From Candidatus Hydrogenedentota bacterium (GTDB taxonomy: Bacteria; Hydrogenedentota; Hydrogenedentia; Hydrogenedentales; CAITNO01): a stretch of DNA of 62,995 nucleotides. The translations under genes and the position numbers were made by a program. Below are positions 5,618-8,677 of this stretch, in pieces. The notes beneath the pieces were generated by a model that was not told the DNA's origin, did no database searches, and saw only the letters and a program-made list of their open reading frames with translations. Positions within the stretch are counted from its first letter, which is position 1; each line of letters starts with the position of its first letter. Location of the stretch: positions 1-62,995 of the forward strand of contig JAAYJI010000164.1 in NCBI GenBank assembly GCA_012523015.1, given 5' to 3'.

Positions 5618-8600
5618 ATGAATACCGTACATTCTCATGTGTTGGTTTGCGCCGGTGCGGGATGTGTTGCCTCCGGCGCGTATGCAGTAATCGAGGCACT
5701 CGAAGCATCTATGCGCAAGCACGGGCTCAATGAGGAGGTCAACCTTGTACGCACGGGTTGTCTCGGCCCCTGCGCCATCGGCCCCGTTGCCGTTGTCTAT
5801 CCCGACGGCGTATTTTACCAAGGCATCAAACCTGAAGATGCCGAAGAGATCGTGACGGAGCACTTGCTCAAAGGGCGTACCGTCGACCGTTTGAATTTTA
5901 AAGTTACCGCCACCGCGCAGATTATTCCTGCCCTGCAAGAGATCAATTTCTTCCAGCAGCAGCAAAAGATCGTACTGCGCAATTGCGGTGTTATCGATCC
6001 CACCAGTATCGAAGAATATATTGCCCGTGACGGCTACCAAGCCCTTGCCAAAGTGCTGAGTGAAATGAAGCCGGAAGAGGTGACCGATACGGTGAAAAAG
6101 TCCGGGCTCCGCGGACGTGGCGGTGCCGGCTTCCTGAGCGGGCTCAAGTGGGAATTCACACGAAAGGCGCCGGGCGATAAAAAATACGTGCTTTGCAATG
6201 CCGACGAAGGCGACCCCGGCGCGTTCATGGACCGCAGTGTCCTCGAAGGCGATCCGCACAGTGTGATCGAAGCCATGACCATTGCCGGCTATGCAGTAGG
6301 ATCGGACGAAGGCTTTGTTTATGTGCGCGCTGAATATCCCCTTGCTGTGGAACGTTTAGAAAACGCGTTGAAACAAGCCCGTGAATTGGGATTGCTCGGC
6401 AAAAACATCATGGGTTCAGGCTTTGACTTTGAGCTGGAAATCCGTATGGGATCCGGCGCTTTTGTGTGCGGCGAAGAAACAGCGCTCATGCGTTCTATTG
6501 AAGGCAAGCGCGGTGAACCGCGGCCCCGTCCGCCCTTCCCCGCTGTTCAGGGTCTTTGGGAAAAACCCAGCTTGCTCAACAATGTAGAAACCTATGCGAA
6601 CATTCCGGTCATCATTAATAAGGGTGCTGACTGGTTCGCCGGTATTGGCACAGAGACGAGCAAAGGCACCAAGGTCTTCGCCCTTGCCGGGGCAGTTCAT
6701 AACAGCGGCCTTGTGGAAGTGCCCATTGGCACGCCTCTCGGTGAAATTATTTATGATATCGGCGGCGGTATCCCCAACGATAAAAAATTCAAGGCGGCTC
6801 AGATTGGCGGACCATCCGGCGGTTGTATCCCCCGCGAACATCTCAATGTGCCCATTGACTATGAAACATTGACCGAGCTGGGCGCTATTATGGGCTCCGG
6901 TGGTCTCATCGTCATGGACGAGGATACATGTATGGTCGACATGGCGCGTTTCTTCCTCGATTTTGTGCAGGAAGAGTCTTGCGGAAAATGTGTGCCCTGC
7001 CGTGTCGGTACCAAACGCATGCTTGAGATTGTCAGCCGCATTTGCGATGGTCAGGGAGAAGAAGGCGATGTGGAGAAGCTGATCGCACTGGGCGAACAAA
7101 TTAAAGATACTGCCCTTTGCGGTTTGGGTCAGACAGCGCCCAATCCCGTGCTCAGCACCATCCGTCACTTCCGCGAAGAATATGACATTCACATTCGCGA
7201 AAAACGGTGTCCCGCCGGTGTCTGTCCTGCGCTTGTTCGCGCGCCTTGTATGAGTGCGTGCCCCGCCAATGTGTACATTCCCGGTTTCGTTTCGCTTGTG
7301 GGTGAAAAACGTTATGCAGAAGCGCTCCGCGTTCACCGCGACAGCAACCCCTTCGCTTCCGTCTGTGCCCGTGTATGCTTCCATACCTGTGAAGACAAAT
7401 GCCGCCGCGCTAATCTGGACGATCCCGTCGCGATTCGCGGTATCAAGCGCTTCATGGTCGAACAAGAAGTAACCATTCAGCTGCCGGAAATGCGTGAGAA
7501 CGAAGCGAATGCCAAACGAAAGATCGCTATCGTTGGCTGCGGCCCGGCAGGCCTTACCTGCGCATATTTCCTTGCCCGTCTTGGCTATCAGCCCAAGGTG
7601 TTTGAGGCGGCTCCCCGTCCCGGCGGTCTATTGGTTCAGTGTATTCCTGCCTACCGCATGCCCCGTGAAGAGTTGGCCCGTGAAATTCGCATGATCGAGC
7701 GGATGGGCGTTGAAATTGAAACCAACAAAGCCTTAGGCAAAGATTTCACCTTAGAAGACTTGCGCGATCAGGGCTATGAAGCCGTATTCCTCGGTGTCGG
7801 CGCTCCCGCCGGTGCGAAACTGCGCATTGCGAATGAAGATGCTGAAGGCGTCTATGATTCCATGGACTTCTTACGCGAATATAATCTGCGCGGTTCCGCG
7901 ACAGTGGGCAAAAAAGTTGTGGTCATTGGCGGCGGTAACGCGGCAATTGACGCGGCACGTACCGCGGTGCGCTTGGGCGCAGAGGCGGTGACGATTCTCT
8001 ACCGGCGTACCCGTGACGAAATGCCGGCCTATCAAGAAGAAATTGAAGAAGCCGAAAATGAAGGCATCATTCTGAAGACGCTGGTCTCGCCTCAAGAGAT
8101 TGTTGTTGAAAACGGCAAGGTCGCCGGTGTCCGTTGCGATCACATGTGGCTGGGCGATTTCGACCGCAGCGGCCGCAGACGCCCGCAAATTCAGGAGAAT
8201 GGAGAATCCTTCATCGAAGCGGCGGATCAGGTCATTGCCGCCATCGGTCAGTCTCTGGATACCCAGTCGGTTCTTGGCGACATGGCGGTCAAGCTGAATC
8301 TCAACGGCTTCGTTGCTGCAGATCCTCTCTATGGCCGCACTTCCGTGGAATGGCTCTTTGCCGGCGGTGATGCCGCTGACGGTCCTTCCTCGGTGGCGGA
8401 AGCGATTGGCGCAGGCGAACGCGCCGCTGTTGGCATTGATTGTTTCCTCACGGGCGAAGAGCACGCCTTCTGGCGTGAAGCCTATGAGGTGGACGCGGAA
8501 TTTGATCCCGATGCCGATCCTACCGACGCGCCTCGTGCGAAGATGAAACTCATTCCCCGTGAACGACGTATACACAATTTCAACGAAGTAGAAATGGCTT

Positions 8601-8677
8601 TTACGGAAAGCGTTGCCGTGCGCGAATCACACCGTTGTTTGCGTTGTGATTATGGCAAAGACACGTGCGGTCAGTAA
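5618..8677 (+). CDS. hndC: Hydrogenase flavoprotein subunit: N-terminal thioredoxin-like [2Fe-2S] domain, NuoF/HndC core (FMN, NADH, [4Fe-4S]) and a fused C-terminal GltD/NfnB-like Fe-S/FAD/NAD(P)H oxidoreductase module
   Basis: NuoF motifs are present: [24 protein letters not shown] and [12 protein letters not shown]. From about aa 527 the GltD-type pattern begins with CPAGVCP...CMSACP...NPF.SVCARVC...CEDKC. Two dinucleotide folds follow: [18 protein letters not shown] and [18 protein letters not shown]. Total length is 1019 aa. Confidence 0.9.
   Translation: [1019 protein letters not shown]

Follow-up and report, generated by a model that had tools for sequence, protein, structure and literature searches.

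Among the systems described so far, the closest to the one analysed here are the HydABC/HndABCD hydrogenases of T. maritima, A. woodii, T. kivui and S. fructosivorans, NiFe-HydABCSL, and the 'sub-type I BfuABC' of Hydrogenedentota (group A3) reported by Zheng & Huang (mSystems 2024; PMC11406978), a study that was computational only and offered the speculation of two bifurcation centres. In the solved Bfu enzymes, the low-potential route leads from C1 of BfuC through the B3/B4 clusters in the C-terminal domain of BfuB to ferredoxin, and the mobile B3/B4 domain is held by a hinge motif in which three Cys and one His coordinate Zn. We analysed a stretch of 62,995 nucleotides from Candidatus Hydrogenedentota bacterium (contig JAAYJI010000164.1, GenBank assembly GCA_012523015.1), hereafter referred to as the window, which carries an operon with the order rex-hndA-hndB-hndC-hndD and the same operon logic as HydABC/HndABCD. 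HndC, the BfuB of this operon, has the [2Fe-2S] domain, FMN site, B1 cluster and Zn hinge in common with these enzymes, whereas their ferredoxin-reducing 2x[4Fe-4S] C-terminal domain is missing and a 479-aa GltD/NfnB-type module (2x[4Fe-4S] + FAD + NADPH, from residue 541) stands in its place. We tentatively propose, with a confidence a little short of even for the chain as a whole, that the low-potential arm uses NADP(H) where other Bfu enzymes use ferredoxin, which would make the enzyme an [FeFe] hydrogenase linked to both NADH and NADPH.

The architecture is identical to that of sub-type I BfuABC(D), of which the locus is a member: it has a group A3 cluster in which B3/B4 has given way to DPD_II plus a C-terminal FAD/NAD(P) domain, and a BfuD gene is also present in the Hydrogenedentota members. 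The fusion architecture has therefore been known since 2024, and the present analysis is a confirmation and refinement; beyond PMC11406978 it adds a circular permutation, a Lys signature, a kinship with Stn/NfnABC and pairing with a non-hydrogenase BfuA, none of which was reported there. The earlier Bfu survey by Schut et al. 2022 required IPR017896 (ferredoxin-type 4Fe-4S) in BfuB and therefore probably missed the variant; it mentions neither GltD nor a fusion. Likewise, a NuoF-GltD fusion architecture is not described in Losey 2020 or Sewell 2017.

Domain organization and conservation of HndC

The gene and the parts of its product are located in the window as follows.

5618..8677, plus strand: hndC (bfuB), whole gene of the fusion protein, 1019 aa
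5618..5890, plus strand: thioredoxin-like [2Fe-2S] domain (B5) of HndC, Pfam residues 6-81, with C11, C16, C48 and C52
5969..7195, plus strand: NuoF-type core with FMN/NAD(H) site, SLBB and [4Fe-4S] B1 (TIGR01959, 501 bits)
7190..7225, plus strand: H525-x5-C531-x4-C536, the hinge motif of HydB, which in solved Bfu enzymes is the Zn site once named 'B2'
7238..7468, plus strand: first part of the DPD-II-type 2x[4Fe-4S] region (Fer4_20; alignment to 9bov_A, 8oh5_C and 4ylf_B)
7520..8458, plus strand: FAD Rossmann and NADP(H) Rossmann folds (Pyr_redox_2; GCGPAG 640-645, R680; motifs 771-782 and 795-804)
8540..8653, plus strand: C-terminal tail, the permuted N-terminal DPD-II segment, ending in C1007-x2-C1010

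The open reading frame (ORF) at 5618-8677 runs without interruption to a product of 1019 aa. A frameshift or stop codon looked for near position 7200, where the original prediction had placed the start of the module, was absent, and the protein is encoded by a single ORF in all of the 50 full-length orthologues aligned (41-77% identity). Pfam located Complex1_51K at residues 159-330 (149.9 bits, E 7e-44), SLBB at residues 354-402 (27.4 bits vs a cut-off of 27), NADH_4Fe-4S at residues 441-525 (116.5 bits, E 5e-34), Fer4_20 (DPD domain II) at residues 534-617 (E 7e-21) and Pyr_redox_2 at residues 635-933 (E 8e-30), and gave no match in HndC to an ordinary Fer4-type dicluster domain (IPR017896; B3/B4). 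Among the NCBIfam models, nuoF_fam covered residues 127-526 (501 bits) and the GltD-type models covered residues ~494-1011, the best being PRK12771 with 478 bits, all of the GltD-type models scoring under their own cut-offs. Pfam and NCBIfam thus bear out the predicted covalent fusion of a HydB/NuoF-type FMN protein with a GltD/NfnB-type FAD-NADPH module, as well as the loss of the usual ferredoxin-like 2x[4Fe-4S] tail; the two [4Fe-4S] clusters of the C-terminal half belong to the DPD-II (Fer4_20) fold, not to the ferredoxin type. Compared with the definition of BfuB by Schut et al. 2022, HndC possesses the NuoF FMN, SLBB and NuoF [4Fe-4S] B1 domains and, as its residues indicate, also B5 ([2Fe-2S]) and the metal site of the hinge (B2/Zn), and it lacks the ferredoxin-type dicluster C-terminal domain (IPR017896).

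Cofactor ligands of both halves were invariant or nearly so among the orthologues. In the N-terminal half, C11, C16, C48 and C52 of the [2Fe-2S] domain were kept in 46-50 of the 50 sequences; the FMN/NAD(H) site, consisting of GRGGAGF (residues 166-172) and the motifs at residues 194-203 and 280-290, was conserved throughout; ESCGKCVPC was present; and the B1 ligands C455, C458, C461 and C501 were Cys in 50/50. In the C-terminal half, the DPD-II cysteines (C544, C548, C583, C587, C591 and C595) were present in 49-50 of the 50 orthologues, and K610, the non-Cys cluster ligand of this domain, was Lys in every one. The NADP(H) signature comprises GGGN (771-774), YRR (795-797) and EMP (801-803), all invariant or nearly so, with Y795 and R796 found in 50/50 and R797, like R680 of the FAD site, in 49/50; the YRR...EMP motif also occurs in the NADPH-binding chains StnC, NfnA and NfnB. 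The residues for FAD and NADPH binding that were looked for in the C-terminal half on alignment are thus present and conserved, and both sets of sites, two for flavin and two for pyridine nucleotide as had been expected, are retained.

Junction, Zn hinge and order of the C-terminal module

Chains of HydB, StnB and NfnB(Bfu) aligned with HndC column for column through 'HIRxKxCPAGxC' and stopped at about residue 540, and in the alignment to solved chains the GltD-type similarity began at R541 (nt 7238). Because the HydB alignment runs through this motif and the GltD alignment starts after it, H525, C531 and C536 were assigned to the HydB hinge, not to the ligands of a GltD cluster. While the fusion itself stood, two details of the original prediction were therefore shifted: the start at 7200 was ~13 codons early, and of the Cys-rich Fe-S region ascribed to the module, the GltD-type cysteines were confirmed and 'CPAGVC' (C531, C536) turned out to belong to the hinge. 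H525, C531, C536 and C438 were each found in 50/50 orthologues, and the third Cys of the Zn site may be supplied by C438. A role of C1017 as the fourth ligand of Zn or of a cluster was also weighed and dropped, because this Cys is conserved in only 4/50 orthologues. The module swap starts exactly where the B3/B4 domain of the solved enzymes starts, directly after the Zn hinge.

The 'full architecture' of GltD/NfnB originally claimed for the module was not found in its usual order. The segment with which GltD/NfnB opens ('NFxEVE...RCLxC') was located at the extreme C-terminus of HndC (residues ~975-1012): the last ~40 residues aligned with residues 8-43 of T. maritima NfnB ('...RCLQCP') and, in one contiguous stretch, with residues ~530-567 of StnC/NfnA, the segment behind the module in StnC and Csac NfnA. 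Instead of the canonical N-to-C order of NfnB, HndC has a split motif, with CxxC at 1007-1010 and Cx3CP at 544-549. When the tail was joined in silico to R541, the motif CxxCxxxxCxxxCP (CxxCx4Cx3CP) was restored and the Fer4_20 score rose by 31.5 bits, from 69.0 bits (profile 30-109) to 100.5 bits (profile 1-109). C1007 and C1010 were present in 50/50 orthologues, all of which end 2-30 aa past RCLRCD. These alignments show that the C-terminal module is circularly permuted and that the invariant C-terminal CxxC completes its first cluster, which is built from this CxxC and C544, situated 8 residues past the hinge. By homology with the ligand sets of pig DPD, we take the hinge-proximal cluster to be held by C1007, C1010, C544 and C595, and the FAD-proximal cluster presumably by C548, C587 and C591 plus the non-Cys ligand K610.

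A protein identical to HndC was found on 7 contigs from 4 sources, and >120 protein clusters (90%-identity) of ~1015-1025 aa were 71-100% identical to it, the named members being metagenome-assembled genomes (MAGs) of Hydrogenedentes, Planctomycetota and the 'FCB group'. In a survey using one genome per species, in which the best 80 of 599 confirmed relatives were taken as loci, 70 of the 80 carried the fusion with the same junction. This recurrence, together with the 50 continuous ORFs, argues against an assembly or annotation artefact in which a hydB and a gltD-like gene had been joined by a sequencing error, and so does the C-terminal CxxC, which is needed to complete a cluster that has its remaining ligands at the junction; we regard the chance of such an artefact as negligible.

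Relationship to solved enzymes

The N-terminal half of HndC scored 630-805 bits against the HydB/BfuB chains 7t2r_B, 7q4v_B, 8a6t_B, 8oh5_B, 9bov_B and 7p5h_B, with 805 bits to HydB 7t2r_B vs ~400 bits to Nqo1/NuoF, and is of the bifurcating-HydB type, not of the plain NuoF type. The C-terminal half gave the following scores.

386 bits: NADPH module of Csac NfnA (9bov_A)
366 bits: NADPH module of S. ovata StnC (8oh5_C)
342 bits: NADPH module of T. sibiricus NfnA (9n5u_A)
292 bits: NfnB (4ylf_B)
285 bits: NfnL (5jca_L)
175 bits: GltD

The top three matches have the same circular permutation as HndC. K610 aligned with K170 of StnC, and HndC reads 'IKRF' where NfnB has 'LERF'. In the Stn study, the Lys ligand of the FAD-proximal cluster was 'strictly conserved' in StnC, its counterpart in NfnB being Glu. 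The FAD of Stn/NfnABC was placed at the end of an electron-transfer chain and found to be non-bifurcating by structure and mutagenesis, and bifurcation was assigned to the B1-FMN-C1 'flavobicluster'. HndC shares with Stn/NfnABC (8oh5, 9bov, 9n5u) the permutation, the Lys ligand, the YRR...EMP site and the BfuBC core, features by which its C-terminal module is, on comparison of sequences, assigned to the Stn/NfnABC type and not to the NfnB type. The two differ in where the module sits. In Stn/NfnABC it is inserted in BfuA between the [2Fe-2S] and the NuoG-like clusters and forms part of the mid-potential input wire, while ferredoxin is bound by a BfuB that retains B3/B4. In HndC it makes up the C-terminal half of BfuB and takes over the position of B3/B4, and the accompanying BfuA is a true hydrogenase. 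In addition, C114 of StnC is replaced by Ile/Val in HndC, and the extra C583 of HndC is NfnB-like. The large subunits of NfnAB/NfnSL (4ylf of T. maritima and 5jca of P. furiosus) belong to the same fold family, with 2x[4Fe-4S], FAD and NADPH, and have in common with HndC the Arg near flavin N5; they are un-permuted, however, carry the Glu ligand where HndC has K610, and have an obligatory NfnA/NfnS partner ([2Fe-2S] + FAD), no homologue of which was found in the operon or the 63-kb window. GltB, the large-subunit partner of GltD, was also not found in the 63-kb window.

These comparisons bear on the idea of two bifurcation centres, an FAD acting as in NfnB and an FMN/B1/C1 site acting as in HydABC, by which H2, NADH, NADPH and ferredoxin would all be linked. 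Such an enzyme would be consistent with the intactness of both flavin sites, with the conservation of R680 (equivalent to R201 of NfnB) and with the NfnB-like four-Cys second motif, which is kept with C583 included; moreover, in NfnSL-type enzymes ferredoxin docks near the distal cluster, and a counterpart of that cluster exists in HndC. However, a bifurcating FAD needs two electron exits, and the HndC polypeptide encodes only one, the DPD-II clusters; NfnA/NfnS is missing from the operon and the window, as noted, and hndB, which encodes the sole additional [2Fe-2S] protein, was missing from 35 of 60 operons surveyed. K610 is the signature of StnC and not the Glu of NfnB, and in the closest solved homologues, which have the same permutation, the FAD has been proven non-bifurcating. 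Kinship with Stn/NfnABC, K610 and the lack of a conserved second electron exit thus disfavour the NfnB-like bifurcating FAD of the original prediction, and we consider a two-centre enzyme improbable.

Gene organization of the operon and the window

The remaining genes of the operon are as follows.

3751..4575, plus strand: rex-like redox-sensing repressor (Pfam Put_DNA-bind_N, E 5.5e-14; CoA_binding, E 1.9e-14)
4631..5167, plus strand: hndA (bfuC), NuoE-like, with [2Fe-2S] C1 (Pfam 2Fe-2S_thioredx, 164 bits, full length)
5193..5573, plus strand: hndB (bfuD), small thioredoxin-like [2Fe-2S] accessory subunit (2Fe-2S_thioredx, 24.2 bits, under the 24.8 cut-off)
8716..10488, plus strand: hndD (bfuA), M3-type [FeFe] hydrogenase catalytic subunit (NF040763, 892.6 bits; cut-off 765)

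The NF040763 score of hndD confirmed that the fusion is encoded beside an [FeFe] hydrogenase. The translation of hndD contained the H-cluster motifs TSCSPGW (P1), MPCTAKK (P2) and MTCPGGCIGGGGQ (P3), which agree with the consensus sequences TSCxPxW, MPCxxKK and ExMxCPGGCxxGxGQ, P3 being read as EIMTCPGGCIGGGGQ, and Pfam matched Fe_hyd_lg_C (326 bits), Fe_hyd_SSU, Fer2_4, NADH-G_4Fe-4S_3 and Fer4. The core of a Bfu enzyme, an adjacent BfuC and a BfuA with N-terminal [2Fe-2S]/[4Fe-4S] domains, is thus present in the form of HndA and HndD.

The true start of rex may be an internal ATG near 3877. Rex homologues upstream of the fusion operon were also observed in Actinomycetota, Fibrobacterota and other Hydrogenedentota. 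A search for the Rex operator (TTGTGAANNNNTTCACAA, <=3 mismatches) returned one match, far from the operon and fewer than expected by chance; because no site was found at the operon, it is only the adjacency of the genes that points to regulation by Rex.

Elsewhere in the 63-kb window, the genes had housekeeping or glycan/sialic-acid functions, and further redox enzymes were not found. A sialic-acid/glycan utilisation cluster occupies 12348-20920 on the minus strand, with a BNR sialidase-like gene (13722-14861), two GlcNAc 2-epimerase genes (17546-18748 and 19643-20920) and, at 14858-17545, a gene for an unusual 895-aa protein that joins an N-acetylneuraminate epimerase (NanM, Kelch) domain to a sodium:solute symporter. 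On the same strand, 1705-2991 encodes a 428-aa protein with a PA14 domain and a C-type lectin domain. Large ORFs with no Pfam match at E <= 1e-6 were 54486-57470 (994 aa), 50363-52087 (574 aa), 59543-61249 (568 aa), 36642-37769 (375 aa) and 12348-13550 (400 aa).

Distribution and neighbourhoods of the fusion

The 70 loci with the fusion span more than 15 phyla and come from Hydrogenedentota, Planctomycetota, Verrucomicrobiota, Lentisphaerae, Kiritimatiellia, Spirochaetota, Bacteroidota, Fibrobacterota, Acidobacteriota, Actinomycetota, Atribacterota, Armatimonadota, Chloroflexota, Thermodesulfobacteriota and Bacillota, and a cultured carrier is the syntroph Pelotomaculum terephthalicicum JT (L033). 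The closest named relatives of HndC were from Hydrogenedentes/Hydrogenedens MAGs (77-80% identity), and by their C-terminal halves the fusions fell into two clades, a close one with 61-72% and a distant one with 41-48% identity to HndC. A neighbour-joining tree of the N-terminal halves grouped most fusions in one clade apart from the canonical Firmicute HydB, with L034, L040 and L072 as outliers; since this tree carries no support values and has three outliers, we make no firm claim on a single origin. In a Pirellulales MAG (L059:7603-9014), the C-terminal half of the fusion was recovered as two overlapping tblastn segments, probably owing to a frameshift or assembly error.

Gene order around the fusion was largely retained, with hndA upstream of it at 58 of the 60 loci that could be evaluated. 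Within the close clade, hydA lay immediately downstream of the fusion in 30/30 evaluable loci, and hndA and hydA were its only conserved neighbours; an hndB homologue was present in 9/32 close-clade and 16/28 distant-clade operons (25/60 in all), so that hndB is dispensable. In the distant clade, hydA was present in 13 loci and a formate dehydrogenase-type BfuA was found instead in 13-14 loci; for L032:9107-11794, L052:9025-11760, L058:8942-12007 and L040:11664-13607 this molybdopterin-type BfuA was confirmed by Pfam, that of L032 being split at a probable selenocysteine TGA codon. Because the same BfuB-FAD fusion occurs with formate dehydrogenase and other partners, it is regarded as a portable module that is not hydrogenase-specific.

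Another distant-clade arrangement was seen in L038 (9097-11469): downstream of the fusion are encoded a Fer2_4 protein of 234 aa and, next to it, one of 546 aa that bears a Glu_synthase (GltB FMN) domain. ORFs of similar size were present in L039, L046 and L060. The products might form a Bfu-type enzyme whose third module is GltB-like. Loci of this kind, like the occurrence of GltD-family modules in sulfide dehydrogenase, Nso and Sfr, would fit an FAD module that serves some other substrate, be it polysulfide/sulfur or Fe(III) (SudA/Nso/SfrB-like), the scavenging of O2/peroxide or a GltB-like partner. We consider this very unlikely for HndC, as the operon of the window encodes no such partner, the NADPH signature is found in nearly every orthologue, and the close clade conserves hndA and hydA only.

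Several loci contain more than one flavoprotein. L028, L030, L034 and L035 have the tandem order bfuC, (HATPase_c gene), bfuD, fusion bfuB, second bfuC, short bfuB and hydA, in which the short bfuB encodes 536-547 aa without a B3/B4 domain; in the variants L031 and L040 a formate dehydrogenase-type BfuA replaces hydA, in L031 before the second bfuC-bfuB pair. These operons therefore hold two different flavoprotein pairs. In L002 (6153-10174) and L027 (4738-8363), a second operon follows directly downstream, with rex and then a canonical hydB (591-599 aa) plus hydA, and this placement of ferredoxin-type and NADPH-type hydrogenases side by side suggests that they are not redundant.

The permuted NADPH module as such was detected in 4597 representatives at E <= 1e-30 in many architectures. 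It was fused in HdrA-like (P0124, P0133, P0136), DHODH-like (P0129) and PFOR/IOR-like (P0197) proteins and occurred in further redox proteins (P0145/P0173/P0178/P0247). One family with the permuted module has a degenerate NuoF-like domain, in which the FMN motif is lost and the hinge Cys pair kept, and a C-terminal ferredoxin domain behind the module. P0121, P0128 and P0137 were considered as free-standing ancestors and rejected, since they start inside the HydB hinge/four-helix region and are thus fragments of fusions.

Proposed electron transfer

The locus encodes a cytoplasmic [FeFe] hydrogenase of the HydABC/Hnd type (Bfu family, group A3) whose small mobile B3/B4 domain has been replaced by the module. 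In the scheme that we propose, H2 would be made or consumed at the H-cluster of HndD, and electrons would pass from the HndD clusters to B1/FMN of HndC, the site of NAD(H) binding. A second branch, which elsewhere runs to B3/B4 and ferredoxin, would lead from the [2Fe-2S] C1 of HndA to the two DPD-II-type clusters and further to the FAD, which would collect two electrons and exchange a hydride with NADP(H). The route C1 to DPD-II to FAD is proposed because B3/B4 is swapped 8 residues past the hinge and the first cluster of the module lies at the junction. Since the electrons would end on an FAD that exchanges hydride with NADP(H), this FAD is likely, in our judgement, to be a terminal, non-bifurcating NADP(H) port, and energetic coupling would stay at the B1-FMN-C1 site. 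While cofactor sites, junction, permutation, kinship and gene neighbourhood can be read directly from the sequences, the electron path between C1 and the DPD-II clusters, the coupling, the reaction direction and the physiological role are inferred. The net reaction would be NADH + NADPH + 2 H+ <-> 2 H2 + NAD+ + NADP+.

In the cell, the NAD couple lies at ~-280 mV and the NADP couple at about -370 to -380 mV, so that NADPH would be the more reducing partner. By our own estimate, 1:1 confurcation of NADH and NADPH (~-330 mV) would sustain ~100-150 Pa H2; with NADH alone, 2-40 Pa H2 has been measured (PMC7311640). The enzyme would allow a fermenter to dispose of electrons from both nucleotide pools as H2, with no need of ferredoxin, as long as the H2 pressure is low to moderate, and the upstream rex would fit induction upon NADH accumulation, the enzyme serving as an H2-evolving redox valve.

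Several points weigh against this scheme. The AlphaFold2 single-chain model of HndC, built from an input alignment of 33 sequences with 71-91% identity to it, was poor, with a predicted local distance difference test score (pLDDT) of 68.2 and a predicted template modelling score (pTM) of 0.46, the tail and junction falling below 50; the reach of C1 to the DPD-II clusters is therefore drawn by analogy from their position along the chain. A module of ~52 kDa may be unfit for the swinging motion of the ~8-kDa B3/B4 domain. The Arg that hydrogen-bonds flavin N5 in the bifurcating NfnB is kept in HndC (R680) as in StnC and, being conserved in StnC and NfnB alike, it means that sequence alone cannot fix the chemistry of the flavin. 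With its NfnB-like C583 and without the C114 of StnC, HndC is not a pure Stn-type module. By standard potentials NADP+ is not a 'low-potential' acceptor, and the argument rests on in-vivo nucleotide ratios. Ferredoxin could also dock on the hinge-proximal cluster. Finally, as the original prediction had supposed, no NuoF-GltD hydrogenase characterised by biochemistry or structure was found in the literature searched.

An uncoupled enzyme has to be weighed as well, in which FMN and FAD would be independent linear ports accepting NADH or NADPH without confurcation, in function a merger of the S. wolfei-type NADH-dependent and the HydA-GltD-type NADPH-dependent hydrogenases. S. wolfei Hyd1ABC and S. 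aciditrophicus HydAB resemble HndC in having no canonical B3/B4 and are themselves ferredoxin-independent, as are non-bifurcating NADH-dependent HydAB(C) without B3/B4 in general; furthermore, GltD-type modules are often plain NADPH:Fe-S wires (glutamate synthase, DPD, Stn), and the permuted module is a widespread plug-in of many unrelated architectures. However, HydB of S. wolfei and S. aciditrophicus lacks B2-B5, whereas HndC keeps the [2Fe-2S] domain and the Zn hinge, is accompanied by a BfuC with C1, all features lost in non-bifurcating HydB, and adds a second flavin. HndC also scored far higher to the bifurcating HydB chains, its module sits at the gated low-potential arm and not on the BfuA wire as in Stn, and the tandem loci encode a short S. 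wolfei-like BfuB besides the fusion, suggesting that the two are not equivalent. We regard the uncoupled enzyme as rather unlikely, though by no means a minor contender.

If NADP(H) does take the place of ferredoxin, the fused BfuB together with BfuC might represent a general ferredoxin-independent 'dual pyridine-nucleotide' coupling core that serves H2, or formate in the sister operons, a generalization for which we have only limited confidence.

Significance

Anaerobic energy metabolism depends centrally on HydABC and other Bfu-type enzymes, and the mechanism of their bifurcation is debated. A variant in which the ferredoxin arm leads permanently to an NADP(H)/FAD port would offer a clean system for testing Bfu mechanisms, since its substrates are all soluble and inexpensive and NADPH gives an optical readout of the low-potential branch. 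Dual pyridine-nucleotide coupling, if true, would constitute a new type of Bfu reaction, spread over more than 15 phyla and found in cultured syntrophs such as Pelotomaculum terephthalicicum. If H2 is indeed formed by confurcation of NADH and NADPH, a ferredoxin-independent route of NADPH disposal would have to be added to models of fermentation and syntrophy, which would concern Hydrogenedentota, Planctomycetota, Verrucomicrobiota, Spirochaetota, Chloroflexota and some Firmicutes.

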